64,000 nt of DNA, taken from the NCBI GenBank assembly GCA_051313645.2, contig JBNRSN020000058.1, positions 806,001 to 870,000 of the forward strand, given 5' to 3'. Position 1 is the stretch's first letter, and each line of letters opens with the position of its first letter. Of this stretch, positions 3,650-63,249 are shown in pieces. Position numbers and translations under genes: made by a program. This stretch comes from Centroscyllium fabricii (taxonomy: Eukaryota). Below the pieces are notes generated by a model, which saw only the letters and a program-made list of their open reading frames with translations, ran no database searches and was not told where the DNA came from.

Positions 3650-4639
3650 GAGTGTTTTTGCCTCATTGATGGACAAAGCCTTACCAGAACACAGAGACCT
3701 GTTAGTATTAGCAAGTTAATGTATATGTAAATTAATGAGAACTTGGATATAGACATACCACAAAGACAAAAGATAGAATATCCTGTTATATACAGTAGAA
3801 CAGTGAGTAGCTGGCAGTGAGTGTTCGAGAGTTATCTGCAATCTCTGGGTTCAGCTGACATTTAGAAACCTTCGCTCCCTTGGGTTATGACGTCAGTAGA
3901 AGAACTCGATTGAATTACTGCCTTGTTACCTCACCGCCAACCATCTACTCTCCTCAGTTTATTACCCATTCTTTTTGTATTACAGAAGCAAGCATTCCCA
4001 ACAGACAGTGGACACAGGAAGCATTAGGCAATCTCTGCAAGTGAATTAGTTCTGACTAAACCCATGAAAGGGAACTTGTAGTTGCAAGTTCAATCTTTTA
4101 ACAAAACACAAAAATAATAGAATTCAGCATTTGTAATGAGCTTTGTACTACAAAGCGCAAAGTTCCCATTTATTTTCCTTATTTGCATCTATCAAATTAG
4201 ATGAAAATTACACCTTTTATTCAGCCAGTGATTAAATGCAACATTTATGTACTGTTAGAATTGCCCTCCTGGGGGGAACTTAATACTGAATGCTGAATAA
4301 ACAGTAAAAATCCCACCTATCTCAATGCACACAGTATCATGATTTTGAGGAAAACACATGCATAAAGCCATTAAACCAAAACTTTCAGGTGTTCAGATAA
4401 GTTCATATTCCACATCTGTTGCTGGAATAACCAAGGTTAAGTTGCAAAAAGGAAGTTTGTTACCTTTAATAGTCACAGACAAAACATTTTTTTTAAAGCC
4501 TCTCTCTTCCTACAATTGCCTCTCTGCTTGTTTCACATTTTCCAATTCTTCCAGTCACTCTGCTGTTTGTCTTTCACTATCCCTTCTGACCTTCTCCTCT
4601 CTGACCCCGAATGATCAGTCCTCAGCAAAGGCCTGAGAT

Positions 4640-5268
4640 TCATCCCCTTATGCCCCCACCTCAATGAATTTCATGCTCAGCACGGTGCCGAGCTCTTTTT
4701 CCGTCGCCTTCGTCTCCGTGCCCACTTCTTTGGCCAGGAGTCTTCCTCCCGCACAGCTGACCCTTTCTCCCACTTTCAGAATTCCCGTTCTACCTGGACC
4801 CCTCCCTCTGGCCTCTTACCCGCTCTAGACCTTCTCATTGCAAACTGCCGCCGTGACATCGGCCGTCTCCATTTCTCTGCTCCCCTCACTCATTTCTCTG
4901 CTCCCCTCACTCACTCCGACCTACCTCCCTCTGAACTTGCAGCACTCCATTCTCTCAGATCCTACCCCGACATTGTCATTAAACCTGCTGACAAGGGTGG
5001 TGCTGTTGTTGTTTGGCGAACCGACCTCTACCTAGCGTAAGCTGCACGCCAACTATCCGACACCTCCTATTTACCTCCACCTGGACCATGATCCCACTAC
5101 CGAATATTAAGCCACCGTTTCCAAGACTGTTACTGACCTTATCTCCTCTGGACATCTTCCCCCCACGGCCACCAACCTCATAGTTCCTCAACCCCGCACA
5201 GCCCGCTTCCACCTCTTTCCCAAGATCCACAAACAGGGCTGCCCTGGTAGACCCATCGTTTCAGCCTG
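4640..5268 (+). mobile_element. Penelope-like element reverse-transcriptase fragment (decayed)
   Basis: Frameshifted translation gives IVIKPADKGGAVVVWRTDLY and PQPRTARFHLFPKIHKQGCPGRPIVSAC, typical Penelope-like RT N-terminal motifs. Confidence 0.8.
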
Positions 5269-5345
5269 TTTCAGCCATTCCAAGGTTTGTAATATTACAA
5301 AGAAACCAAATCAAGATGCAGTTGGTGCTCTAATGGTGTTCTGTA

Positions 5346-11830: not shown

Positions 11831-13316
11831 CTACCGTGCCCAGGTAAGAGTGGTGCGGTTTGTAAACAAGAGTCCTTCAGCATCGATAATACGGCTCGAG
11901 GTGTTTTTCGATCTGAAGATGTGGGCCCTGAAAATCTGAAAGATGCAATCCTGGTGCTTATGCTGGAATTGCACCAGCCATCGCCCTCCAGTACCAGAAT
12001 TTGCAGAGTCAGTGTGTGCATAGAGCAGATAGGAGCAAGTGCCTCTGTAGTGCATCAGACCAGAAAATCCAGCATCTGACTGTCTTTGGGGATGGTGGCC
12101 CAGCACCTACCCCCGCATTCCCCATATCCCATGCAGACCTCAATCAGCCCCATGTGTATGGGGACCAATATTGATTCTTTAAAAAAAATTGGAGCATTCT
12201 TTGAGGGCCAGGTCAGGTGGAGCCCATTGCTGTCCATCTAGAGACTCGTAAGCTTCTTCTCACTTGGCGTACCAGCCTCCTGTGCAACCTTGAGTCCTGA
12301 TTAAGTCAGAAAAAAATGGAATTCCTTTGTAGGAGTTGCCACCCTTATAAGAGATGACCAAAGGTTCTGCCCCTTAAAAGGCGTGTTGGAGAATCTGTTC
12401 ACCAATGAATTCTGCCAGTTTACTCTCCGTGTTACAGTGGAAGACCACCACGGAATTTTGTGGCTGTTGTCTCCACATGCACTGGTCTCCCCTATCCAAA
12501 TCATGCACCACTATAAGAACATCTAAAAAGATTCCTATCCTCCCTGAAGAGGTGCAACTTGTAGTGCAACCTTAATTAGGAAGACTTCAGGAAGGAATGG
12601 CATTGCAAACTGAAGACTTTTGCACAAGCACAGATTCAGGAAGGAAATAGAAGTTTGCAACAAGTTCAGTGCAGAAGCAGAGAAATAGTCCTGGCCAACA
12701 GAGTACACTGCACAGCAACAGAAAAAAAATCAGTACTTCTCAGTTAAGTTGCATTCCAAAGGAGGCCTGGGTTATTTAGCAATCATGCACTCATTACATA
12801 TGGACAAAGTCATGAAATTCAGCAATTTAAATAATATACAAGTTCAATGAAATATCTCCATGTCCATAGCTTGGCCTCATTCTGGCCTCCAAATGCACAC
12901 GTCGCAAAATGCAGCACACAGCAGGTCGAGCATGCAGTCTTTTACCATCACCCCCACCCCTCGTGCCCGCTGCCAGAAACACCCTGTGCTGCTGGCGAGA
13001 CCTCACAAAATTGAGTCTAGATGCGGCACAGAATTAAAAGGTTACCTTGAGCTTACTACAGCTATCAAACTGCAGCCTGCCTTTGAAGTTTTGTAGTAGA
13101 GTTCAAAAGGTCATGACTTCAGGATATAATCAAACTAACACAGCAACATCTTCAATCACAAACAAGTAGAACTGGCCAACCTCTCAACTACCTTACCATT
13201 GTTCAACAGCAGTCAATAACCTGAAGACTCTGCAGGAACCCAGCTTCCTCGTTTGTGAAAGTAAATCCACTGAACTATTATAATCCCGATCGAGTAACAG
13301 TTTCAATAATAAATCA

Positions 13317-13581
13317 TGATGTGGAGGTGCTTACAAAGGTGTTTTAACACATTAATCAGGCATATGTTAATCATTAATATGTTAAAATATGTTAAAACAC
13401 CTTTGTCTGCTCTGTGTCTCTCTGCTGAAGTGTGATGTGGGAGAGATTAGATTGCTCTCTCCCTTGTATATATGCTGTCTTTAAATTAACTTCTCTTTCA
13501 CCTGAGGAAGGAGCAGCACTCCGAAAGCTTGTGATTTCAAATAAAACTGTTGGACTATAACCTGGTGTGTGTGACTTCTTG
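13317..13581 (+). mobile_element. Short Penelope-like element (pseudo-LTR remnant) with 13-bp TSD
   Basis: Direct repeat caataataaatca at 13304-13316 and 13582-13594. The 3' end gcttgtgatttcaaataaaactgttggactataacctggtg is shared with 34358-34549. Confidence 0.8.
13498..13534 (+). ncRNA. Minimal type I hammerhead ribozyme motif
   Basis: tcac-CTGAGGA-A-GGAG-cagca-CTCC-GAAA-GCTT-gtga: stem I tcac/gtga, CUGANGA core, stem II, GAAA, palindromic AAGCTT helix III region, predicted CUU cleavage triplet. Confidence 0.75.
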
Positions 13582-13959
13582 CAATAATAAATCAAATAAG
13601 GGAGTCCATATTGCGGAATCCAAAATCTGCCTTTTGTTCTTTCTTGGTCTCTGTCACTGCTGCTTCAAAAATGGGTCACAGTGGGATACAATCCCGTGGG
13701 CACTTACCACCTTTGGTTACCTTACAATGAACATCAGCTGCTTGACCATGAGAAACATTGCAGCTGTGCAAAGTACTTTCCTCACCCAACGTCTACAATG
13801 TCAGCAGAGGTCACTGGATAATGATCAGCAGTGAGAGAGAACTTTGGCTTATTTCTCCTCTCCCATTTCAAAAGTGCTGAAAATAATCCTGATGCCCCCT
13901 CACTGAGAATTGCCAGTATCAGGGATCAAACCTGGGAACATCCTGGTCTCTATTACACA

Positions 13960-23017: not shown

Positions 23018-26000
23018 TACATATAAATTCTTCATGTGTCTTTATATAAAATGCATATGACCGTGTGCTGGAAGTAGGTTTTGTCATAATTTATTTTGTT
23101 GAAATTACTTCACAAATAAAAGCATCTGCTTAGATTCCAGCTAGGGCTGCAGTTAGGTGCTACAACTGGCCTCAATGCCCTTGGGCTAGGGCATTCCAGC
23201 TCCTGATTTCTATCCTGGATTCCTGTTGAAAAGAATCAAAGGAGCAAAACTCAGCTGTGATATCTCCCACTGTCAGATAGCCGGCTAATCCTTGCTGTGC
23301 ACATTTGCACATGGGTGACCACGTGGGCGAGGTACTGGATGGCAGTGGGACTGCACTGCAACAGAAGATAGCATCTTCAGAATGACTGGAACACAAATGG
23401 GGGCAAACCCTCCAAAGTAATGGTCTAGCTTTTTCTGACAGCATAGGAATTAGTTTCCACTGTTGCTAGTAAATAGATGATAAAAATAGCAGAGGAAATG
23501 TGCGTACCATGTAAGGTACCCAAAAAAGCCTGCAGTGAAAAGCTTTGAGGGTTGGTCTTCTTAAAAATGACGAGCTGATTTTGTAGTCCACAAGGAGAAG
23601 GCCAATCGGCAGATTAAATCGCTTTACATGGTCAATTGACTGAATAAACTGCACAGCGACTAGGCCACTCAAACACTTATTGCTGACTACCTGAGTCATT
23701 TGATGCCACCAAAATCAAGAACAGGATCTCAATGTCTTTGTTTGTTCAGACAACTAAGAAGCAGCTGAAGATTCAACAAATTTCTCTGCTTAGACTTGAT
23801 CATCTTTGTTACTTAGCTTTTTGTAGTTTCAGATGTGATGTAGAAATTTGGATAAAGATGCCATTCGGTCAATCTCACCTTTGCTGGTTCTCTGAAAGAG
23901 CTATCCACTTAGTCCTAATACCCTACCCTTTCTTCTTAGCATTTTATTAGAAGATAAGATGAAATTATTTTCTTAGACTAATATGGTTAAACCCTAATGT
24001 GCTTTGTTCTGATCACCCTGAATGTTACTTTAACAATAGGAGCAAGTTGCTCATCTTCCCACATATTGTACAGTACTGTGATTTTGTAATTTCAGTCGCA
24101 AGTTTTTTTTTTAAGTAAAACTATTTTAAAATGGTCTCAGGCAATCACCCCCCATTGTAGCTCAGTGGATAAATGGAGACTGCATGGTGCATCACTGTCC
24201 TTAGGTTAGGAATTGGAAAAATGAGGTTGGTCCCTAGCACAGCTCCTGATAATTATCCAGCAACCCTTAAAAGATGTTCAGGTGTGTGGGCACAGGAGAG
24301 AGTTTGGCTCAACTGTGATGATCCAAAAATCAAATAGCTAAACACTTGCTGTCCACTCTGGCCACTAGGGTGCAATATCAGAGAGTACCACCTAGAGTTC
24401 TTTCTTTTATTTTATTCGATCCGGGATGTGGGCATTGCTGGCAAGGCCAGCATTTATTGCCCATCCCCAATTGCCCTCGAGGTGGTGTTGGTGAGCCGCC
24501 TTCTTGAACTGCTGCAGTCAGTGTAGTAAAGGTACTCCCACAGTGCTGTCAGGGAGGGAGTTCCAGGATTTTGACACAGCGACGATGAAGGATTGGCGAT
24601 ATATTTTCAAGTCAGGATGGTGTGTGACTTGGAGGAGAACTTAGAGGTGGTGATGGACCGAATGGTTGACCAGTATCATTTGCAGGTCACATTCCTGTAT
24701 TTGGACAATGTCACGATCTGCGGCCATGACCAGCAAGATCATGATGCCAATTTGGACAGGTTTCTCCGTACGGCCCAGCGTCTGAACCTCATTTACAATG
24801 AGGATAAGTGCGTTTTCAACAATAACCAGTTGGCTATCCTCGGCTACGTGGATGAGAACGGGGTCCTTGGCCCCGATCCCGAACGTATGCGCCCCCTTCA
24901 GGAGTTGCCCCTTCTGCACTCCCCCAAAGCTTTGAGGAGATGCCTGGGGTTTTTCTCTTACTATGCACAATGGGTTCCCCATTATGCTGATAAGGCCCGG
25001 CCTCTCCTCGGGGCTACCTCCTTCCCGCTCCCGTTAGAGGCCCAAATTGCTTTTTCTCATATCAAGCAAGACATCATCAAGGCTACCATGCACGCCATTG
25101 ATGAGTCACTCCCCTTCCAGGTCGAAAGCGATGCCTCCGACTTCGCCCTGGCCGCCACCCTTAACCAGGCAGGCAGGCCCGTCACTTTCTTCTCCCGTAC
25201 CCTGCAGGGCCCTGAAGTCCGTCACTCTTCAGTGGAAAAGGAGGCCCAAGCAATCGTGGAAGCAGTGCGCCACTGGCGCCACTATTTGGCCGGTAAATGT
25301 TTTATCCTTCTTACTGACCAACGGTCAGTAGCGTTTATGTTCCACCATAAACAGAGGGGTAAAATCAAGAATGACAAGATCCTCAGGTGGCGGATCGAAC
25401 TCTCCGCTTTTGAGTACGATATTCTGTACCGGCCAGGGAAGCTTAACGATCCCCCGGACGCCCTGTCTCGAGGAACATCTGCCAGCACCCAGTCGGGTAG
25501 TCTGAACACCCTCCACGCTAATCTCTGCCACCCGGCTCGCTCACTTCGTCAAATCACGCAATCTCCCTTATTCCATTGCGGAGATCAAGGCGATGACGCA
25601 GGAGTGCCCTGTCTGTGCTGAGTGCAAGCCCCAGTTTTACAGGCCTGACAGAGCGCACCTCATCAAGGCCACCCGCCCATTCGAGCGCCTGAGTGTGGAC
25701 TTCAAAGGTCCCCTCCCCTCTACCAACCGTAACTCGTACATTCTCACTGTGGTCGACGAGTTCTCCCGTTTCCCTTTTGCATTCCCATGCCCAGATATGA
25801 CGAGTGCAACAGTGGTAAAGCATTTTATCACGCTATTCGCCATTTTCGGCCTTCCCGGCTTCATACACAGCGACCGGGGGGTCCTCATTTATGAGTGACG
25901 AGCTGCGTCATTTTCTGCTCGCGCGGGGGGGTTGCCTCAAGCAGAACGACCAGTTACAATCCCCGGGGGAACGGTCAGGTAGAACGTTATAATGGGACCA

Positions 26001-26034
26001 TCTGGAAGGCCATCACCCTGGCCCTTCGATCCAA

Positions 26035-26489
26035 TTCAATTCAATTCAAGTTTTATTGTCATTGCAGAGTACTAGTACAATACAACGAGACAAAGCTCGA
26101 CGCTCCAGAGAGTAGTGCAAATAAATTACATGCAAATTGCATACAGTGAAGTACATTTTCAGGTGTGCAGGTACCGGAGTTTATTTTTTAGAGTTCAGGA
26201 GGCTGACAGCCCTGGGGAAGAAGCTGTTCTTAAATCTAGTCGTGCGGGTGCAAAATGATCTGTCGCGTCTCCCGGAGGGCAGGGGGCCGAACAGACTGTG
26301 GCTGGGGTGTGTGGGGTCTTTAATAATGTTCAGAGACCTCCGTAGGCAGCGTTTGAGGTAGATGCTTTCAATTGACGGTAGCTGGGTACCGGTGATTCGT
26401 TGGGCAGTTTTGACTACCCGCTGCAGGGTCTTCCGGTCCGAGATGGTGCAATTTCCATACCAAACTGTGATGCAATTTCCATACCAGAC
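26035..26489 (-). mobile_element. Rex1/Babar LINE 3' fragment inserted in the Gypsy integrase
   Basis: Close match to 15795-16220. tccaa is duplicated at 26030-26034 and 26490-26494. Short tandem duplication (tgcaatttccatacca) at the 5' truncation point and an (aattc)n tail. Confidence 0.9.
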
Positions 26490-27200
26490 TCCAAAGGCCT
26501 TGCAACCTCCCATTGGAAGGACGTCCTCCAGGATGCGCTCCACGCTACCTGCTCCCTCTTGTGCACAGCCACCGGTTGCACACCTCACGAGAAACTCTTC
26601 TCTTTCCCTAGGAAATCGAATTCGGGGACGTCTCTGCCAACGTGGCTTACCAACCCGGGGCCGGTTTTGCTTAGAAGGCATGTCCGTGGACACAAGACTG
26701 ACCCTCTTGTCGAACGTGCGCGCCTGCTGCATGCCAACCCTCAGTATGCCTACGTGGCGTACCCAGATGGGCGTGAGGATACCGTCTCGATCAGAGACCT
26801 TGCACCCGCTGGAGACGTTCACTCTGAGTTGTTGGCGGAGCCCTTGCCCTCCCAGGTCACATTTTCACAACAGGGGCCGTCTTTTCATTCACCTGCGCAC
26901 ACTACATCGGCCCTCGTCCCTTCCAATGCACGACGGAGCTCATCATGTTGCTCAGCCTACTCTTCCGGCGGCTGCTGCACTCCACCAGCTCTTCTTGTGC
27001 CTGAGATACCTCTTCCACCAGTGGAGTCTCTGTTCACGTCGGGAGCCCCGTCAGCGTCTTGCCCGATTACGACTACTCCAGCTTCTTCGCCATAACCGAT
27101 ACTGCCTCGCCGATCTGTTCGGACTGTTAAACCTCCACAGAGACTTACAACACAGTGCTGATATTCGCCCCGCGGGACTTGTTTTTAAGGAAGGGGTGAA

Positions 27201-31157: not shown

Positions 31158-32025
31158 CAGGTTGCGCACCGGAAATCCGGCACGGGTGGGACCAGGCCCG
31201 TGCCGGGAAAGTGAAAAAACCGGCAGAATGAAGTCGGTCAGTGCGCATGCGCGCACCATGCAAAATGGCCGAGCGCATACGCACAACATTGAAAGTGGCC
31301 ACCGAACGATGCAGGAAAAGTCCACAACTAGTCGTCCTCTGAAAGTGCACGGCACCCAATTTAAAAAGCGCCAGCCAGGTTTCTGGATGCCCATTGCCCC
31401 GAGAGAGCCGGGACCCCGGGAGCCGGGGGTGCAGAGGGGAGGCTGGCTTTGGGAGTTCACAGCAAAGGAGTAATTGATGTTGAGGGGGGCTGAGTGGGGC
31501 CATGTGTATGTGTGGATTGGTGCAGGGGGAGGGGGTGGGAGGGGAGCTATTTCTAGAGTGAGTGCTCACTGGATGTGTTAGTACTGCCGACACACGAGCC
31601 GGAGCTGTTCACTCACTCTGCCAGCCGCTCATCCACTGACTCCAGCAGCAGCAAAGCCGGGTAAGGAACTCCGCTCAACATTCCCATTCCCGGCTCCCGC
31701 ACAGGGCCAGCCTGCTCACCGGGAACCGTGCGCTTCCAGTTGTTTTATTTTCGCCCTGACGCCACGGAAGGCCCGGCGGCCGTTTTGAATGATCTGCGCA
31801 AGTGCTAGCCGTCCGGCGTCGCATGCGCAGATCATTCAAAACACCCGGCAGTCGTTTTGAATGATCTGCGCATGCGCTCGCCGTTCGGCGGCGCATGCGC
31901 AGATCATTCGTTGAAGCCGCGATCGCGGCTGCCATCTTGCGCATGCGCAGTGCAGTCGGGACAATTTGTTCCGGCAGACTGAAGCTGCCGGCGTTTCGGG
32001 TCACGGATATTCGGTGCACAACCTG
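31158..32025. mobile_element. pogo/Tigger-like MITE with GCGCATGCGC-rich body
   Basis: TIRs caggttgcgcaccggaaatccggcac ... cacggatattcggtgcacaacctg|TA. Confidence 0.75.
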
Positions 32026-33570: not shown

Positions 33571-34357
33571 GTGCACAAAAGTGCACACTGGGGGGGGAGG
33601 GGGGATTAGAGTTTATAATTTCCTCTAATTACAGATATAAAATAATACAAAAGCTCATCCTATCTATCTGACTTCAGAGCAGTCAGTCAAAGAGTACGAC
33701 ACTGGGCGAGGAGCTTGGGCTGCTGTCAGACTGATGCTCCAATGTCAATCAGGGCCCGCGGTCAATTATATAAAACTAAACAAAGAAAAGTTCATATTAC
33801 TTTATCTCAGTAATTACACTGAATGAGAAGAGATACGTTCTTTTTAAATTGAAGGTTATTGTGCAAAGTACTTTAAAATTAATAAAGAAAGTTATGGCCT
33901 TGGCGCTTTCACAATAAGCCATAAGGTTTCCAGTTGAAATTATTCTAGATTCAATGAAACAATCCCTTAAATGGCTTTCTAAAGCAGTTACTCATCATGT
34001 AATGGGACAGGTATGTGTTCCACAGCTGCTTTTCTCATTTCTAAATGCACGAAAACCCTTGTGCCTAATTCCTAGAGCTGGGTTATACTATTCTCAGACG
34101 GGATTTCCTACATTTGAAGAAAACACATGCATGAGCTTCATCAGAACTATCTCAGATCAATCAAAGAAAAACAAGAAAGGGACTATGATTGTCTAAGTAG
34201 AAATACAGGTAAATATACAGAGAACATCAATATGCAGGTCACCAGGAACTGCTTTGTAGCAGCAGCCAATATAGTTTTGTCCAAAGATATTTACAGAGTA
34301 GGAAAGAGAAAAGCAAAGGGGAATGCTTCATAGTGGAGTGCTGCTAGCATAAATCTT

Positions 34358-34549
34358 TAATGTGGAGGTGCCGGTGTTGGACTGGGGTGGACAAATGCAA
34401 GAAGTCACACAACACCAGATTATAGTCCAACGGTTTTATTTTAAATCACAAGCTTTCGGAGCGCTGCTCCTTCGACGAAGGAGCAGCGCTCCGAAAGCTT
34501 GTGATTTAAAATAAAACCGTTGGACTATAAATCTGGTGTTGTGTGACTT
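34358..34549. mobile_element. Palindromic miniature Penelope-like insertion with 14-bp TSD
   Basis: ctagcataaatctt at 34344-34357 and 34550-34563. Inverted arms of about 75 bp (34400-34474 and 34476-34551, one indel) are made of the same pseudo-LTR end as 13500-13581. Confidence 0.85.
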
Positions 34550-36399
34550 CTAGCATAAATCTTGGCCTCTGCCTTTTGGAAATATTTCCCACCTCCCATT
34601 TTAGGAATCCACTGCTACTTCTCACTGCCGCCACTTCTCACTGCCACTCTCCCTCTACCAACCAAGACGGAGAGACAGGTTAGACTACAGACCTGTCCAC
34701 ACTGCTGCCAAAGCCAATTTGACTGACAGCACAGTTGTGCATTGCTATGTTTCCTGTGCAGTTCTCGAAAGGCCATCATTACTGCATACATTTATAAAGA
34801 GACACAGAAATTGCAAAAGGATGCCACAGTAATCTATATCAATAGAATAAGGTTACACCCACACCAGATACAATTATTTCTGGTTTCGTGAATTGCATCA
34901 GAAGTAAAAAAATAACATGAATCTACCTGCCGCTTTTCATCATACAGTCACCCTATGCAGCTTTTTGTCTCCTATGTCTCCTCTCAATGACTAAAATGAC
35001 TTGAGGCGTGTTCCTCATTTATTCCCAATTTATTTTCAAACCCTTCCTCTTCTGTGCAGCACTCTGCTAGTTAGAGGATGGGAGAACAGTTGACAAACTC
35101 CACTGGGGTTGCTGATGCCAGACCTGTTTCAAGAAAAATCCAATGGGAGGTGCATTGCCCCAAATAAAATTGAGTTTTCCCCCAACGAGGCATATTTCAA
35201 GCCAATGAAACTGGAAATTGAAGTCAACAAGAATGTTACAGTTAGATATTGAAATGAATAACTTAAAGTATATCACATGTATAATCTCCCAAGTACTGCA
35301 GTACTTTTAAACTGGATCATGGTGCTGATGAGATCAGATAATTTGGGGTTGCAAACTTTGCCAGAGCAGAGTTTGAAATTTGTGCACATTACAGTGCAGG
35401 TGTCAGTGCCGAGGAGTGGAATGTTTTCCTATATTGTTAACTATATGCATCAAGCAGTGTCAGCAGGCAAAGTCTCCTCTAATTCGCCTCAATAAGGTGC
35501 CTCAACCCCAACATTAAGAAAATATCCCTGATGCACTTTAATTTTGCATATGAGCCATTCTTCCAATCTCAGTGATACTGGCAGTCTAAGGCCAAATCAT
35601 GTGCAGCTTTGTAGGCTTGTAACAGTATGAATTGGGTTGAGTGCCGAAATTCATTTCACTTGGAGCGGAGTGGAGAGAGAGAGAAATCATTGACATCTGT
35701 TATAAACCAAATAAGATCCTTCGGAGCAGTAGGATCTCACCAAACAGTTAAACTTGTGACTTTGGGAAACCAGTTATTTACTCACCCACTCTGTCCACTT
35801 CACATCATTGCTCACTGTCAATTATTCTATTTAAATAAAATAGTAATGTAAATAATGTGACATTATGAGGACTGTATTCTGTCCCACTGTTGAGAGCATA
35901 GCAGTTCTGTACTGAAATCAGATTTTGATTTCTTAAATGGTAAAAATGATCTGTCAGGTTTTTTTGAAGGTTAATGTAGTGCTATTTAATAAACAATTGT
36001 ATTCAGTGCAGTAAATTTATTGTAATTACCTACAGTGCTTGTAACTATAGATAGACGTTGAGACATTTTCCCACAGAAACTAAAGATATTTACCTGTGAC
36101 AGAATAGACTCTAAATCAGTCCAATAGAACAATCTCCAACAACAAACAATGGCGCTAGTTCACCAGACATGTACCAATAACCCTCACTGAATTAAATCAG
36201 CATTCTGGTGTTGTCATTATATGTACTATGGTTTTAGACATGTTTTCATCATTACTGCTAATGCATAATTCTTATCCCATCACTCTCGACTAAGTAGCCA
36301 CCAATGTTAAAAGCATAACATGTAGTGTTGCACGTGGGGACTTAAGACAAAGTCCAGTATTCAGGTCAAGCCGGTTAGAAGGTAGTGGGGTAACTGGAT

Positions 36400-37186: not shown

Positions 37187-38250
37187 AGAACATAGAACAT
37201 ACAGCACTGTACAGGCCCTTGGGCCCTCAATGTAGTGCCGCCCTTAGTCCGTCTCTGATTTTTCCTGTCCCCCCTACTGTTCCTTCCCCTCCATGTACCT
37301 GTCTATCATCCTTTTAAAAGCACCCAGACTGTCCGCATCCACTATTTCAGATGGTAGCCTATTCCATTCCCCGACCACTCTCTGTGTAAAGAACTTGCCC
37401 CTGCCATCCCTTCTGAATCTTCCTCCTTGAATCTTGTGCTCGTGTCCTCTTGTTGACGTTCTTCCCGCCCGGGGAAACAGTCTTTGCACGTTTACTCTAT
37501 CGATCCCCTTCATCATTTTAAACATCTCTATCAAGTCCCCCCTCTTCCTTCTCCGTTCCAGGGAGAAGAGTCCCAGCTCCCTCAACCTCTCCTCGTATGA
37601 CTTTCCTCCCATTCCCGGCAGCATCCTGGTGAATCTCCTCTGCACCCTCTCCAGCGCCTCCACATCTCTCCTGTAGTACGGTGCCCAGAACTGCACACAG
37701 TACTCCACGTGTGGCCTCACCAGTGACCTGTACAGCTGCAGCATGACCTCCCGGTTCTTAAACTCTATTCCCCTGTTGATGAAGGCCAATACACCATAGG
37801 CCTTTTTCACTGCTTTGTCCACCTGGGTGGCAGCCTTCAGTGATCTGTGTACATATACTCCCAGATCCCTTTGCTCCTCTGCTTCACTCAGGATCCTGCC
37901 ATTGACCCTATATTCCCTCTTCCTATTTGCCCTGCCGAAGTGCATCACCTCGCATTTCCCCGTGTTGAACTCCATTTGCCATTCTTCAGCCCAGCTCTGC
38001 ATCCTGTCTATATCCCTCTGAATCTTTCTACTTCCTTCCTCCTCATCCACTTCTCCCCCTATCTTTGTGTCATCCGCAAACTTGCTGACCCACCCCTCAG
38101 TCCCCTCCTCCAAGTCATTGATGAAGATTACAAACAGCAGTGGCCCCAACACCGACCCCTGTGGTACCCCACTGGTGACCGGTCTCCAGCCCGAGTATTG
38201 GCCCTCTACCACTACCCTCTGCTTCCTTTGAGCCAGCCAGTTCTCAATCC
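37187..38250 (-). mobile_element. 5'-truncated CR1 LINE with uninterrupted ORF2 C-terminus (312 aa)
   Basis: ORF 37274-38212 has SGVPQGSVLGPLLFVIFINDL, KFADDTK, WQMEFN, VRPHVEYCVQFW and FFTQRVV motifs, then a 3' UTR and (ttctatg)n tail. Confidence 0.95.
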
Positions 38251-38630
38251 ATCCTGTTGTTGGGAGTTTCTCCCAAACTCTACTGAGTATGGGGAGGGGT
38301 TCTCAAACTTAAATCTTTAGTATTGGGGGAGTCTTTGTCCCAATCGCCACTCGATGGAACCAAGGAAGGGATATATTTCATGCGGGGGGGTTGAGCTGCC
38401 CTTTGTATTAATGGATTTATACTTGCATTCTTTAGCTCTGTAGCGATAGTTTTTCTCAACGAGCTTTGCTCGGGGGGAGCTTAACTCACTGGGGGTTCTC
38501 CATTCTCTACTCACGGCATTGAACTTTGGATCCGATAGCAAAATACTGCAGATGCTGGAAATTGGAAATAACAACAGAAAATGCTGGAGAAACTCAGCAG
38601 GCCAGGCAGCATCGGTGGAGAGAGAAACAG

Positions 38631-38667
38631 AGTTGACGTTTCAGATCGATGACCTTTCTTCAGAACT
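38631..38667 (-). ncRNA. Minimal type I hammerhead ribozyme motif, sense to the NFIA transcript
   Basis: Minus strand: agtt-CTGAAGA-A-AGGTC-atc-GATCT-GAAA-CGTC-aact. Stem I agtt/aact, stem II with one G-U pair, GUC cleavage triplet. Confidence 0.75.
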
Positions 38668-39108
38668 GGAGAAGTCAGGAGAGGGGGGTAGATTTTAAAG
38701 CTTGTCGGAGCTGGGGAAAGGGGGAGGGGGCTGAAAGAATAAAGGAAAGCCACGGAAGCCCAGCATAAACTCGAGGAACAGCACCTCATCTTTCGCTTAG
38801 GCACTCTACAGCCCTCTGGACTAAACATAGAGTTCAACAATTTTAGATCATAACCTCAGCCCCTACCACACTTTTATATATATATTCATATATTCTCTCT
38901 TTTTTCAATCTACACTTCCGTCTGGGCTTCTTTATTCTCTACCAGAGCCGTTCACACCTATTCAGAGCCATCATGTGTTCCTTGAATTTCTCCTAATATC
39001 TCTTACCTTCCCCGCCTTCCAGCCTGTTGCTGATCTTTCCTTTATTCTTTTAGCGCCCCCCCACCCTTCTACAAGCTTTAAAATCTATCCCCCTCTCCTG
39101 GCTTCTTC

Positions 39109-39145
39109 AGTTCTGAAGAAAGGTCTTCGACCTGAAACGTTAACT
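39109..39145 (+). ncRNA. Minimal type I hammerhead ribozyme motif
   Basis: agtt-CTGAAGA-A-AGGTC-ttc-GACCT-GAAA-CGTT-aact. Palindromic AACGTT, GUU triplet. Confidence 0.75.
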
Positions 39146-42000
39146 CTGTTTCTCTCTCCACCGATGCTGCCTGGCCTGCTGAGTTTCTCCAGCGTTTTCT
39201 GTTGTTATATTGAACTTTGGATGTTTTCCTGTTCCCTGGTACCATCTCCCATCTTCCTATGTATTGTGCTGGCAGAAGTTTCATAGGATGTCTGGGACAG
39301 GTTTTGGTGCTGAGCTGCTGAGTCAGTGTTCTGGCTTTCTTGCCTATGATTTTCCTTTCCAACAGGGAATTTAGGTTCAATTGAATACCTGGAAACTACT
39401 GAGGCTGTTATAATGGGCCACCTGTAGGTGTAGTACCTTTGGAGTGATGAGAAGACTCGAGGGTTGGCGGGGGGGGGGGGGATATAACTGTACCTAGCTG
39501 CTCCTGTTTATGCTTTATCAAATTTAAATAAAATATAAAAAGTAAATTTAAAATACTTTATTACAGTTAATTTTTTGTGTCTTCTTTAAATTCTAGCCGG
39601 ACTGCAAAATACTCTCTCCAGCAGTCTTCCGGTGAAGAGCTTTGGAACTTCAACCATGGAGAGAAGCAGCATTTGAATAACAGTTGTGACAATGCGGGCT
39701 TACATTGGCACAGCATGACTTTCGCACTAACCAATGGATTCATGCAGACATTAAGCAGTAAATCCCAACTGCTATTAAAATAGGATTTTAATTTGTTTTT
39801 TAATACCTGGAATGTAATTAAGTATTGCTATCTGTTTAACATCTAGGCATTACAGCAATGTAAACTTTAATAAACACAGAAAACAAATCAGCCCTACCCT
39901 AACAGAAACACAAGTACGTCATCGCTAGGAGGCACAGAAGACTGAACACGTAAAGGAGTAGTTTTAACAATTTCAGAAAGGACAACATCAACAAGATGCT
40001 TCACAAAATATTCTCCTGGGTCAGTAAACTCATCAAAAGTACTACATAAAATATTTACATTTCCTTTCAAAACTTTTGAAAATAAAACTATTTAAAGATT
40101 ACAAAAACACACTGGAAAACTTTGAATTTTCCCCAGTGGGCAATATGGGGCCCGCTGAGTTCAGTTTCTGGAGCAGGCTGTTCTGCGAGCTGTGGCAGTT
40201 TGAAAACTCTCAAATGAGGCACCATCACCCTTTTAATACTTCACTTATAAATGGTTACATCTACAGTCACATGCTTCAATCTAAGCAGAGAGATAAACAC
40301 CTGAGCCTTGTCTACCTAATAATAAGTTACATGTACATACAATTGAGGGAAGTAAGTCAATACACATTGTAGCAAACATTATTAAATAAATCAAATATCC
40401 TTCAAGTGGAAAGAATAAACAACTTTAAAATAGTATTCCCAGGTAGTTTCCCATTATATATAACATAAGTGCCTGTATCTAGATATACACAAATAATCTT
40501 CATATAAACAAATATATAATATGCACAAACTAATCTGATTGATTCAAATCTCCGAGTATGTACAGTGATACACTCAGGGTACAGGAGTCTTATTTTTTCT
40601 ATGTAGGATCATCTGTCAGCTGTAGGTCAAAGTCATGACTGCAGACTGACTGTGCTCTGAGCCCTGTTGTGCTCCCAGCTGGGGGAGGAGAGAAGGGAAG
40701 GGGAGAGGCAATGGTAACCTCTAATTAACCCCATGGTCTGTGGGACAAACAATCCTGCCATAAACCACTTTACTCAGCCTTTTCAGCCACAACATGTTGA
40801 AAGATTCATTCTTCATTATGACAAGTGCCACTGGTGTCTTTAACACATTGTAACCTAAATACATGCTCTTAAACAGCTGTGAAACCATCATTACCATACT
40901 AAGGCTAACATTAATACAACGATGCATTGTGCCCCTCCTAACAGGCAGTGGGACATTAAGGAATAAATAAGGTTACTTCAAGCAGAGAATTAAAACAATA
41001 GATGTGAATAGAACAGTGTCAAAGTTTCATAAACTTTAGATGTAATGAAAACAATATTGCTTCTTAATTATTCGGGAGAAATAAACAGTAAGGATATGCC
41101 CAAAAGCATTCTTGGTTTATCTCACAAGTAGAAAAATACTTGTTTCTATCTCCAACACCCAAAATTGTATATAAACAATCGAGACATTTTTGGATGCCAT
41201 CAAATTTGCATGGCTAACTGGCATGCACATGTAACCAAGGCAGCATCAAAAAATATGTTCTTGAATATTAGCAACACTGACCAGGATGACCGTAACATTT
41301 TAATATCAGATTACATTGGCCAGTGACACTTATTATGCTCTTTATAAACTGACATATAGAGATGAAAAATATAGTCACTTCCCAATCTGCTTTTAAGACG
41401 AGACAACTCCCCTTCTTTTCCCTCAAAGATTTAAATTTCAGCTTCACCGTGAACTAATGCTGGAAGCTTGAAAAAATCCAAATGTTTTATTAATCTCCTT
41501 CTGTTCCCTTTCATTGAATTCTGAAATGTTTAAAGGATTACTGCAATAATACTAAAGTTTGCTTCTCACCAAACAAACAATTGTGGAATAATTTTAACTG
41601 CTAAAAAATGTATTAGTTCTACTGCACAAGAGCATCATTTTCAAAGGTAATAATACCACAGATAGCACTTCGGCACCTATCATTCCCCAATTTTTTTCAA
41701 CAATGGCATTCACTTTAGATCAAAAAGGAACAAAATAAACTTCAAGTGCCTGGAGTAGAAGGGCTGATCTATTTGCAGAAAACAGCAGCAACCATATACT
41801 GATACATCGTCTCCTTCAACTGAAGGTCCTGACCATTAAAAGAAGAGTTCAGGAGACTATCTTGCGATGCATGTCTAAACTTAACATACTATTTTAAGAA
41901 CTGAGAGTTCAGGTTGAAAAATAAAACCAAGGAATCTCACTTCCACATTCTGCATATGTTCTGTGGTTTTACACCAGCTGAACTGGAAACAATTAAAGAA

Positions 42001-56508: not shown

Positions 56509-56839
56509 CAGGTTGAAGACCGTTAATCCAGTAACCATTAAGCCGGCAGCTTCAGTCGTACCGGCATAAATTGCCCCGCCTGCACAAAATGGCCGCCACG
56601 ATTGATGCTTCGGCAAATGATCTGCGCATGCGCCACCGAATGGTGAGCGCATGCGCACAGCATTCAAAATGGCCGCCGGAACTTTTGAATGATCTGCACA
56701 TGCGCCGCCGAACGCATGTGCAGACCATTCAAAAGTTCCGGTGGCCATTTTGAATGCTGTGCGCATGCGCCACCGTGGCTTCAATCAGTCAGCGTAGGGT
56801 GCTGGTCCCGACCCTGCCGGATTAATGGTGTTCAACCTG
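56509..56839. mobile_element. pogo/Tigger-like MITE with GCGCATGCGC-rich body
   Basis: TA|caggttgaagaccgttaatcc ... ggattaatggtgttcaacctg. Confidence 0.8.
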
Positions 56840-58265: not shown

Positions 58266-58393
58266 GCAAAAGCAAAATACTGCGGATGCGGGAAATCGGA
58301 AATAAAAACAGAAAATGCTGGAAATACTCAGCCAGTCAGGCAGCATCTGTGGAAAGAGAAACAGAGTTAACATCTCAGGTCGATGACCTTTCA
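58266..58393 (-). mobile_element. Penelope-like pseudo-LTR fragment, hammerhead core truncated
   Basis: Matches 38537-38658 and stops inside the CUGANGA core. Confidence 0.75.
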
Positions 58394-59517: not shown

Positions 59518-59808
59518 TGTGGTAACCCTTTTATGTAACTGTTTTACCACTGTATTATTGTGCCAATAATGGGCTGTGCAGATGTAAGGCACAGCCCTGT
59601 AACCTGTGTAATACTGTTGGGAGCCAGGTCAGCCACACCTCTAACTCCTCCCCCAGGTGAGGCCCTTTATAGGTGGAAACTGACCGAGGCTCCTCATTCC
59701 TGTACAGAAGTTCGTTCCGGAGGGTAGCTCCGTTCTTAGCTATTAAAAGCCTTTAGTTTCGGTAACTACTCGTCGACTCTTTTAATCTGAGATATTGACG
59801 ATACGTCA
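59518..59808 (+). repeat. Gypsy 5' LTR (about 291 bp)
   Basis: The start is fixed by identity to the 3' LTR start. The end at ...gatacgtca is inferred from the TG...CA rule and analogy with 27201-27468. TATA-like tttatag near 59666, attaaa at 59742. Confidence 0.75.
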
Positions 59809-59832
59809 ATTTTAATCGCTAAGTATTTCCAA

Positions 59833-60747
59833 ATGGAGAGCAGCGCAGTTAAACCTGAGAAGCTGGACATCAGTCCCCAGGACCTGGCCGCTGCTACCAC
59901 GTTCGAACACTGGTTCGGCCTCCTGGAGGCCTACATGGACGCCGCCAAGGCTACATCGGACAGGAACAAACTGCAGGTCCTCCAGTCGAGGATCTCCAGC
60001 AGGGTATTCTCCCTCATCAGAAACGCCTCAACCTACACAGCGGCTGTACTACAACTACGAAAATGCTACGAGCGCCCGGTCCATTCGGTCTACGCCCGAC
60101 ATGTGCTTGCGACCAGATCTCAGCTACCGGGTGAGTCCAATGAGCAGTTCGAGCAAGCGCTCCAGGCCCTGGTACGGGTCTGTGGCTGCCAAGCCAGAAC
60201 AGCTGAAGAGGCGGCGAATCTCCTCGTTCGGGACGCTTACGTTACGGGACTAAGGTGTGTGGAAACCCGCCAGCGGCGACTGGAGAAAGACAATCTATCC
60301 CTCGAGGAGGCGATTAAGATAGCCAACTCAGTAGAGGGGGGCCGAAACAAGTTACAGGCGTACAGCGGCACTAACCCGCAAGCCTACGACATATGGGCCG
60401 CGTCACAACGGGCCCAGGCCTGGGCAGCACCACAACGGGCCGAGACCCCCACGATGGCTGCGACAGCCACAAAAGATAAGCGCTGCTACTTCTGCAGCCA
60501 GGGACTGTACCCAAGAGCGAGATGCCCAGCCAGGATAGCGACCTGTGAGAGATGCGCTAAGAAAGGTCATTACGCTAAAGCCTGCAGATCAGCTCCAGCA
60601 GCGCCTAACCCAAGGTACAACAGTGCAGCCTGTGAGAGCACCGACAGACACCAGGTAAGCTGCAATAGCAGCGCGATCCAGCGACGGTCCGGGGGTAGAC
60701 AACAAGCGCCCCCATCTCCCACCCCCAACGCGGCCGGCTGTGTGTGA
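59833..60747 (+). CDS. Gypsy Gag (probably frameshifted near its end from an originally longer gag-pol)
   Basis: 304-aa ORF with zinc knuckles CYFC...RARCP and CERCAKKGHYAKAC. Confidence 0.85.
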   Translation: MESSAVKPEKLDISPQDLAAATTFEHWFGLLEAYMDAAKATSDRNKLQVLQSRISSRVFSLIRNASTYTAAVLQLRKCYERPVHSVYARHVLATRSQLPGESNEQFEQALQALVRVCGCQARTAEEAANLLVRDAYVTGLRCVETRQRRLEKDNLSLEEAIKIANSVEGGRNKLQAYSGTNPQAYDIWAASQRAQAWAAPQRAETPTMAATATKDKRCYFCSQGLYPRARCPARIATCERCAKKGHYAKACRSAPAAPNPRYNSAACESTDRHQVSCNSSAIQRRSGGRQQAPPSPTPNAAGCV

Positions 60748-61045
60748 ATCACGGGCACCGCCAACCCGACCACCGCGGCCCGCTGCGTGCGAATCACGGG
60801 CACTGCCAACCCGATCACCGCGGTCCGCTGCGTGCGAATCACGGGTGCCGCCAGCGCGCTCACAGCGGCCCACCATGTGCGACCCCCCGGCGACGCCATT
60901 TTGTATCCAGGGCCCCTCCATGTGCGAGCCAGGGGCGCCGCCATTTTGTATCCAGAGCCCCGCCATGTGCGGGCCAGGGGCGCCGCCATCTTGTATCCAG
61001 GGCCCCACCAGTGTGAGCCAGGGGCGCCGCCATCTTGTGTACAGC
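60730..61045 (+). repeat. 45-bp (15-codon) tandem repeats between Gag and protease, 7 units of two types
   Basis: gaatcacggg at 60746, 60791, 60836. gccatyttgt at 60895, 60940, 60985, 61029. The last spacing is 44 bp, i.e. a 1-bp deletion. Confidence 0.9.
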
Positions 61046-63249
61046 CCCGACCAGCAAGGGCTCCACGCACACGGAAACGCACGGCTGCGGCAGCCAGAAT
61101 CAGAGTGAACCAGGACAGGCCACATACCCTGTCTAACTCTATAATGCCAATTAAGATTAACGACTATACTGTTAACTGCCTTTTTGACACAGGAAGCACT
61201 GAGAGTTTCGTACACCCCGATACAGTGCAGCGCTGTGGACTGCAGGTCCGGCCCACTAACTACCAAGTCTCCCTAGCTTCACAGTCCCACACCGCGGACG
61301 TCACCGGCTACTGCTCCGTCACGCTCACCGTCAAGGGGCGCGTGTACCATAATTTTAAATTGTATACCCTCCAGCAGTTGTGTGCCCCAGCCTTACTAGG
61401 TTTGGATTTCCAGTGCCACCTCAAGAGCGTGACAATGGAGTTCGGCGGGACCTTGCCCCCCCTCACCGTCAGTAGCCGGGACAATCTCTTCCCAAAGCGG
61501 AGCCCGGCCTGCGGCCTCTCCACCCTGAAAATCGACACCCCCTCGCTGTTCGCCAACCTCGATCCGAAGTGCAAACCCATTGCTACAAAGAGTCGGCGGT
61601 ACAGTGAGGGGGATCGCACGTTTATCAGGTCGGAGGTCGGGCGGATGCTGAAGGAGGGGATAATTGAAGCCAGCACCAGCCCCTGGCGTGCCCAAGTTGT
61701 AGTGGTGAAGTCTGGCGAGAAACAGCGGCTGGTTATCGATTACAGCCAGACTATCAACCGCTACACCGGGCTCGATGCCTACCCCCTTCCCCGCATCTCA
61801 GACATGGTCAACCAGATCGCCCAGTACAAGGTGTTCTCCACGATCGACCTTAAATCGGCGTATCATCAGCTCCCGATTCGGAAAGCCGACCGCCCCTACA
61901 CCGCCTTCGAGGCGAACGGTCGGCTCTACCACTTCCTCCGGGTCCCCTTTGGTGTGACCAACGGAGTGTCAGTGTTCCAACGGGAGATGGACCGTATGGT
62001 TGACCAAAATGACTTGCAGGCCACTTTCCCTTACCTGGACAACGTGACCATCTGCGGCCACGACCAGCAGGACCACGATGCCAATCTGGCCAAATTCCTC
62101 GACACGGCGGACAAGCTGGACCTTACGTATAACAAGGACAAATGTGTCTTTAATACAGACCGGCTCGCCATCCTCGGATACGTGGTGGAGAACGGGGTCC
62201 TCGGCCCCGACCCACAGCGTATGCGACCCCTGCAAGAACTGCCCCTACCTCACAACCCCAAAGCCTTGAGGAGATGCCTAGGATTTTTCTCCTCTTATGC
62301 ACAATGGGTCCCACAGTTCGCAGATAAGGCTAGTAGACCACTCCTCAAGGCTGCCGTCTTCCCCCTTTCTGTAGAAGCCCAAACGGCATTTGCAAGGATA
62401 AAGGAAGATATTATCAAGGCGACCATGCTCGCTGTTGATGAATCCATCCCTTTCCAGGTGGAGAGTGACGCTTCGGACTTTGCCCTTGCTGCCACCCTGA
62501 ATCAGGCAGGCAGGCCCGTGGCGTTTTTCTCCCGCACCTTACAGGGACCCGAAACTCGCCACTCCACAGTGGAAAAGGAGGCCCAGGCCATCGTGGAGGC
62601 CGTGCGCTACTGGCGTCATTACCTGGCCGGTAAGCGTTTTACCTTGCTCACCGACCAACGGTCAGTGGCGTTTATGTTTAATAATAAACAACGGGGTAAA
62701 ATCAAGAATGATAAGATCCTGCGGTGGCGGATCGAACTCTCGACTTACGAGTACGACATTCTTTACCGCCCAGGTAAACTCAATGAACCCCCGGACGCAC
62801 TGTCCAGGGGAACGTGCGCCAGTGCCCAGCTAGACCGGCTGAAGGACCTCCACGACCGCCTTTGCCACCCGGGTGTCACCAGACTCGCCCACTTCGTCAA
62901 GTCCCGTAGCCTCCCCTACTCCATCACGGAGATCAAGGCTATGACCCGAGAGTGCCCTGTCTGCGCCGAGTGCAAACCCCACTTTTTCCGGCCAGACACG
63001 GCGCACCTCATTAAGGCCACCCGCCCCTTTGAACGTCTCAGCGTAGACTTCAAAGGCCCCCTCCCGTCCACCGACCGCAACTCATACTTCCTCACGGTAG
63101 TGGATGAGTTCTCCCGCTTCCCCTTCGCCTTCCCCTGCCCAGACATGACGAGCGCAACGGTGATCAAACACTTCACCACGCTGTTCGCCATCTTCGGTCT
63201 CCCCAGCTACATCCATAGCGACCGGGGGGTCATCGTTCATGAGCGATGA
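60787..63249 (+). CDS. Gypsy Pol (protease, RT, RNase H, integrase N-terminal part)
   Basis: LFDTGS protease, IDLKSAYHQ/VPFG/YLDN RT, ESDASD RNase H, H..LCHPG...CPVC zinc finger, DFKGP...HSDRG. The true start is uncertain. Confidence 0.9.
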   Translation: MRITGTANPITAVRCVRITGAASALTAAHHVRPPGDAILYPGPLHVRARGAAILYPEPRHVRARGAAILYPGPHQCEPGAPPSCVQPRPARAPRTRKRTAAAARIRVNQDRPHTLSNSIMPIKINDYTVNCLFDTGSTESFVHPDTVQRCGLQVRPTNYQVSLASQSHTADVTGYCSVTLTVKGRVYHNFKLYTLQQLCAPALLGLDFQCHLKSVTMEFGGTLPPLTVSSRDNLFPKRSPACGLSTLKIDTPSLFANLDPKCKPIATKSRRYSEGDRTFIRSEVGRMLKEGIIEASTSPWRAQVVVVKSGEKQRLVIDYSQTINRYTGLDAYPLPRISDMVNQIAQYKVFSTIDLKSAYHQLPIRKADRPYTAFEANGRLYHFLRVPFGVTNGVSVFQREMDRMVDQNDLQATFPYLDNVTICGHDQQDHDANLAKFLDTADKLDLTYNKDKCVFNTDRLAILGYVVENGVLGPDPQRMRPLQELPLPHNPKALRRCLGFFSSYAQWVPQFADKASRPLLKAAVFPLSVEAQTAFARIKEDIIKATMLAVDESIPFQVESDASDFALAATLNQAGRPVAFFSRTLQGPETRHSTVEKEAQAIVEAVRYWRHYLAGKRFTLLTDQRSVAFMFNNKQRGKIKNDKILRWRIELSTYEYDILYRPGKLNEPPDALSRGTCASAQLDRLKDLHDRLCHPGVTRLAHFVKSRSLPYSITEIKAMTRECPVCAECKPHFFRPDTAHLIKATRPFERLSVDFKGPLPSTDRNSYFLTVVDEFSRFPFAFPCPDMTSATVIKHFTTLFAIFGLPSYIHSDRGVIVHER

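Follow-up and report, generated by a model that had tools for sequence, protein, structure and literature searches.

Minimal hammerhead ribozymes have been described from the Penelope-like elements (PLEs) of metazoans as motifs with a short helix I, an extra base 5' of stem II and a palindromic helix III (15.2-16.2) that lacks loop 3, dispersed in thousands of copies (Cervera and De la Pena, 2014; PMC4209133). The accessible parts of that study report dual motifs on opposite strands about 100-700 bp apart and describe cleavage by a single minimal motif as undetectable and that by multimers as slight. The complex insertions of Pen2a_Av comprise an inverted 5'-truncated copy, a tail of 30-40 bp at one end and a target site duplication (TSD), with palindromes at some junctions (PMC3846280; PMC8557442). 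Opposed hammerheads at a spacing of 100-700 bp, inverted pseudo-LTRs (pLTRs) and the combination of a one-sided tail with a TSD are thus already published (PMC4209133; PMC3846280). With PAc, the Poseidon element of Anolis, the PLE protein, a predicted dimer, was observed to nick and extend both strands of AT-rich targets and to use two internal reverse transcriptase (RT) start sites between which the tail lies (Frangieh et al., 2024; PMC11167929). A hammerhead resides in its pLTR, and cutting by this ribozyme was seen only alongside the element's protein; RNA-seq ends at its site were absent in the portion of the report available, which mentions neither a nick spacing nor paired priming (PMC11167929).

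The window analysed here is a stretch of 64,000 nucleotides from Centroscyllium fabricii (G000:C1133:806001-870000, part of a 7.2-Gb genome), and unless a contig is named, positions are those of the window. A DNA-binding exon on the minus strand of the same contig (G000:C1133:1130271-1130387) scored best against NFIA chains (383 bits, followed by NFIX at 362, NFIC at 359 and NFIB at 332), the later CTF_NFI exons map to G000:C1133 699153-494631, also minus, and a 63-nt NFIA exon bordered by AG and GT at 9154-9092 (minus), which we take to be exon 3, closes a host intron of ~315 kb. From the positions of these flanking minus-strand exons it follows that the insert studied here sits in NFIA intron 2 (about 315 kb), with NFIA on the minus strand, and that the ribozyme of its left arm is sense to NFIA pre-mRNA. 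The orientation given in the preliminary description was therefore correct, the NFIA exons mapping to the minus strand on both sides. In the direction of transcription, the next NFIA exon lies 29.5 kb downstream of this ribozyme.

The insert spans 677 bp (38532-39208) between two exact copies of a 14-bp TSD, ATTGAACTTTGGAT, located at 38518-38531 (left) and 39209-39222 (right), in agreement with what had first been claimed for it. DNA contigs span both insert junctions, which are present in two samples, and no empty allele was found among the joints listed for four DNA runs from these two samples. Two unequal, 5'-truncated element 3' ends compose the insert, joined head-to-head and bluntly (gap 0) at 38749/38750. 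The left arm (38532-38749, minus; 218 bp) is sense to NFIA pre-mRNA and finishes at the distal end of the element with a tail of ~36 nt (38532-38567, minus) that is unique to it, while the right arm (38750-39208, plus; 459 bp) is antisense to NFIA, has no tail and holds about 285 nt missing from its partner. Over an overlap of 174-182 nt, the arms differ by 13 substitutions and a single gap of 8 nt, and the inverted stretches 38559-38710 and 39066-39217 are 91% complementary. Two of the differences, A/T in loop II and C/U at position 17, are variants found throughout the family. The earlier view of the arms as inverted pseudo-LTRs thus stood with regard to their inversion but not their symmetry, given 218 bp with a tail on one side and 459 bp without on the other.

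Between the arms, a GIY-YIG C-terminus had been proposed. The right arm does carry the end of an RT-endonuclease open reading frame (38752-38853, plus; the last 33 codons and stop), with 29 of 33 residues identical to the ORF end of a longer copy, L011; the 33 codons alone gave no Pfam match and are identified through this resemblance to L011. In L011, weak matches to RVT_1 (E=0.17) and GIY-YIG (E=0.24) follow one another in that order, both below the Pfam cut-offs. In longer copies, motifs in which two cysteines lie between a VY and a YIG box were recognized by eye, and a C-x3-C-x2-C motif precedes the endonuclease in both L011 and L016. A CX2-5CxxC linker between RT and endonuclease marks elements of the Neptune/Nematis type (PMC8557442), so that L011 and L016 show the linker of Neptune (or Nematis), unlike PAc, such a linker being absent from Penelope/Poseidon as far as these are described in the text consulted. 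The 5' truncation, the inverted copy, the one-sided tail of 30-40 nt, the TSD and the hammerhead in a pLTR are all as expected of PLEs, and the insert is a genuine, correctly described and ordinary Penelope-type remnant. Assignment to the non-LTR retrozymes, characterized in the available part of a preprint as hammerhead-bearing units in direct tandem array (bioRxiv 10.64898/2026.07.22.740005), was rejected, the two motifs being on opposite strands.

An intact hammerhead had been noted in each arm, with GUC on the minus and GUU on the plus strand, and both were recovered by a descriptor scan. The minus-strand motif (read 38667-38631), which was also folded, has a predicted cut at 38635/38634 and no loop on helix III; the plus-strand motif (39109-39145) is antisense to NFIA. 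Each possesses the core boxes CUGAAGA and GAAA, a 5-bp stem II, a 4-bp stem I and a palindromic helix III, and hence all the parts of a minimal type I hammerhead with the general features of the metazoan PLE motifs. Stem II measures 7-8 bp in the Schistosoma families (PMC4209133) against the 5 bp of the insert's family. The descriptor gave 0 matches on 1.464 Mb of reversed sequence, and an Rfam scan matched no hammerhead family at either motif. That the arms had diverged and yet kept their core residues was confirmed with the 13 substitutions of the overlap; however, the chance that 26 core bases stay unchanged at the observed divergence is about 0.53, and their retention consequently needs no selection. 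At the 5' edge of each hammerhead lies an imperfect palindrome (38656-38673 and 39103-39120), around which many short mirror-image copies of the family are centred.

These motifs are abundant. Three 36-nt variants have 4,243, 915 and 405 exact matches in the genome, the second being the GUC variant and the third the 36-mer of the plus arm; the plus-arm motif has 6,316 matches within one mismatch, and for the minus-arm motif the counts are 24 exact and 1,010 with one mismatch. Besides the sense motif of the insert, singled out at first, the NFIA intron itself contains four others that are intact, two of which belong to inverted pairs of the insert's family, so that the insert's motif is one of five. 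At G000:C1133:1115041-1115883 and 1090071-1090297, the intron contains two more inverted insertions of this family in which the sense hammerhead is intact; one of the two has a duplicated stem II loop. Across 1.464 Mb of introns from four NFI genes (634 kb of NFIA and 430, 200 and 200 kb of its paralogues), intact motifs number 19 sense and 19 antisense, a test that, with 38 motifs from four genes and two or more families pooled, is blind to depletion under about twofold. In the same introns, element ends are divided 32 sense to 31 antisense, and motifs lacking a complementary arm within 3 kb, and hence unmasked, 9 to 10. From the even split, it would seem that host introns tolerate such motifs at a density of tens per megabase without harm. 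Retrozyme copies in Xenopus were reported to be fewer in introns than between genes, with no strand split mentioned in the part of the preprint available (bioRxiv 10.64898/2026.07.22.740005).

The HDV-like ribozyme of CPEB3 is, like the motif predicted here, a sense self-cleaving motif in a long second intron (PMC10919898). It is single-copy, unmasked and active as a monomer with a half-life of 2-3 min, whereas the NFIA motif is a repeat copy that is predicted to be masked. According to the accessible text of the same paper, which cites Fong (2009), slow intronic ribozymes leave splicing unaffected and fast ones reduce it. By analogy with CPEB3, the sense hammerhead might cut NFIA pre-mRNA under some condition and so tune NFIA output, be it after the duplex is opened by editing or a helicase, with a partner sense copy, or with the element's protein. 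Such cutting would accord with the sense orientation, the intact core and the GUC triplet, with the four other sense motifs of the intron as possible partners, with an intron that stays open over another 29.5 kb of transcription, with the effect of fast ribozymes on splicing, and with the presence of both junctions in two DNA samples.

Folding of the sense RNA speaks against it. As had been anticipated, the opposite arm is predicted to mask the motif, 35 of whose 37 bases are paired with that arm in the predicted fold (33 with P about 1.0 and the others 0.81-0.98). The hammerhead fold would cost 52 kcal/mol in context, compared to 7.5 in the left arm alone, these values referring to equilibrium secondary structure at 37 C with no tertiary contacts, editing or helicases modelled. 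Because NFIA is read from right to left, the antisense arm would be made first, and the duplex between the arms was the predicted best fold at all six nascent lengths tried, consistent with masking from synthesis onward. With this penalty and a loopless helix III, the motif is not predicted to fold as a monomer in nascent pre-mRNA as that of CPEB3 does. Since helix III has no loop, a partner motif is required, and the insert holds no second sense motif; stem I has just 4 bp, and the activity of the class is weak in the portions of the studies consulted (PMC4209133; PMC11167929). GUC, with its 915 exact copies, is a common family variant and not a local improvement, the retained core is what chance would leave, and there is no strand bias among the NFI introns. 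Three contig sets presumed to be RNA extend over the repeat alone, leaving the unique flanks uncovered, and are uninformative on this copy. As a possible footprint of cleavage in the life cycle of the element, 5' ends at the ribozyme cut site were sought, and 3 of 63 alignment starts fell at 116-117. On inspection, many starts near that site proved to be points where the alignment breaks in diverged subfamilies, or to come from co-amplified copies, and they give no evidence on cleavage.

The sense hammerhead is thus predicted to be held closed by pairing with its partner arm, and the suggestion that it could cut the pre-mRNA was not supported: the motif is predicted to be masked during synthesis, its class depends on dimers and the introns sampled show no depletion of sense motifs. 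On these models, cutting of NFIA pre-mRNA is unlikely, and regulation of NFIA through it under a special condition very improbable indeed. The consequence for NFIA is probably nothing.

The relationship between TSDs and tails was followed in 41 inverted pairs, 28 from similarity and pattern searches and 13 from the NFI introns, which were chosen regardless of content and held these 13 among 64 element 3' ends. Left out of the counts were the insert itself (L085), the duplicates L020 and L024-L027 of L019, the exon loci L031, L032 and L034, L175 (at the same place as L011, which replaced it) and L196 (the reference for the pair analysis). An exact TSD of 12-16 bp was present in 28 of the 41 (four of 12 bp, four of 13, 13 of 14, five of 15 and two of 16; mode 14). 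The remaining 13 had 8 bp or less, with none at 9-11, and six of them were still at 8 or less when one mismatch was allowed; some of these 13 are probably not single events. Mismatched flanks yielded at most 8 bp in 300 trials. In a separate search with an 11-bp floor, 45 insertions (67 of 171 ends) had TSDs of 11-17 bp, again with a mode of 14 and with a mean of 65% A+T versus 55% in the window, against 6 chance matches in 395 control trials. The TSDs of non-inverted copies have the same range as those of inverted ones. The consistent TSD length from which a regular stagger was first surmised, in three bounded insertions of the window (13 bp at 13304/13582, and 14 bp at both 34344/34550 and 38518/39209, all re-located), is accordingly borne out by a narrow distribution, distinct from the 8-10 bp of the rotifer examples (PMC3846280). 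As TSD length has been described, in the text consulted (PMC8557442), as variable and as determined once reverse transcription is over, when the second strand is cleaved, the narrow distribution is a modest addition.

Family 3' ends fall into two classes about 33 nt apart, and the outer ends of the two arms of the insert coincide with these two classes, adjoining the TSD. The tail was present on exactly one arm in all 41 inverted insertions. Were the pairs formed by two separate insertions, tail-tail and short-short combinations would be expected, and 0 of 41 were observed. Two insertions, or later recombination between copies, would fit the differences of the arms at family-wide variants, but a single exact TSD encloses both arms, and this origin has almost negligible probability. 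A further rule, that the tail-less arm is the longer, was rejected, this arm being longer in 13, shorter in 10 and equal in 7 of 30 abutting pairs.

Snap-back self-priming at a palindrome, by which the second arm would be copied from the first, is a hypothesis in print for rotifer PLEs (PMC3846280, as far as its accessible text goes). Several pairs of the family are centred on the palindrome, and 7 of the 30 abutting pairs share a start point. The arms of 25 pairs also share minority alleles more often than shuffled pairs (22 vs 10.1 +/- 2.8). The signals on whether one template or two supplied the arms are mixed: of the 21 pairs whose motifs could both be read, nine contain the loop variant and one of these has it on both arms; 13 contain the GUC variant and seven of these have it on both. 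The two variants have genome shares of about 7% and about 16%, respectively, and mutation hotspots are possible; the arms of the 677-bp insert disagree at both sites. Snap-back cannot yield this insert, however, because each arm holds sequence missing from the other (about 285 nt extra in the right arm and the tail in the left, at gap 0). Each arm has unique sequence in 13 of the 30 abutting pairs, for which alone snap-back is excluded, and the outer ends lie at the two fixed 3' end classes beside the TSD. Snap-back is possible for palindrome-centred pairs, and as the source of the inversion it is judged improbable.

In the twin priming of L1, both target strands prime, and an inverted, truncated insert arises inside one TSD. 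By analogy, the insert resembles such products in its inverted, truncated structure enclosed by one TSD, for which double priming may account; with L1, the arms are different parts of one RNA, whereas both arms of the insert start at the element 3' end and overlap. No application of twin priming to PLEs was found in titles and abstract openings, a search with subscription journals outside its coverage. In a scheme of this kind, the element's protein would nick the two target strands at a distance of about 14 nt; priming from one 3' end would begin at the distal RT start site and give the tail arm, and priming from the other would begin about 33 nt further upstream and give the tail-less arm. 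Both cDNAs would then stop early and be joined head-to-head, and opposed hammerheads would be a by-product once both arms exceed ~130 nt. A fixed double nick with both strands priming is what we infer, from end products only.

Taken together, the insert is with high confidence a truncated head-to-head PLE insertion in NFIA intron 2, with a hammerhead that is predicted to be masked and likely inert and a likely origin by double priming at a stagger of ~14 nt. A more general proposal, that PLE integration is concerted, with a dimer, a fixed ~14-nt double nick and simultaneous priming at two RT starts, often on two non-identical templates, has about even chances of being correct. If true, it would account at once for the tail, for the inversions and for the presence of opposed hammerheads, and would replace the sequential model with variable TSDs. 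The narrow TSDs and the rule of one tail lead to exact predictions for the existing in vitro PLE system, namely a nick spacing of 12-16 nt and pairs of long and short starts.

The window contains two insertions of a second Penelope family, one at 13304-13594 (plus) with a TSD of 13 bp and a single hammerhead, which is antisense to NFIA, and an inverted one at 34344-34563 with a 14-bp TSD. The insertion at 13304, which looks single, starts directly after its TSD with about 12 nt (within 13304-13340) that match the end of the tail in the inverted copy at 34358; judging from this similarity, it may be two-armed, with one very short arm. TSD searches at 58271-58392 and 4580-5270 found none; the latter segment (plus) resembles the 5' part of a PLE ORF and has no Pfam match. 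A palindrome-centred inverted copy of the insert's family with a 14-bp TSD and GUC in both arms (L033:882-1108, on G000:C734) is situated about 400 bp upstream of the DNA-binding exon of an NFI paralogue. At least four short copies, near 987257 of G000:C1133 and on C734 and C1111, share the same flanking sequence and thus multiplied as part of another repeat, not as insertions of their own. Six near-identical loci (L019, L020 and L024-L027; G000:C967:7.2-9.5 Mb) represent a large tandem or segmental duplication. By eye, a 342-codon ORF resembling the C-terminal part of a LINE RT (37274-38302, minus) adjoins the insert on its left, and long gag/pol-like ORFs of the LTR-retrotransposon type were seen at 59791-63249 and 24575-27095. 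Hairpins at 31775-31849 and 56675-56740 belong to a repeated palindromic element and gave sub-threshold Rfam matches to mir-3047.
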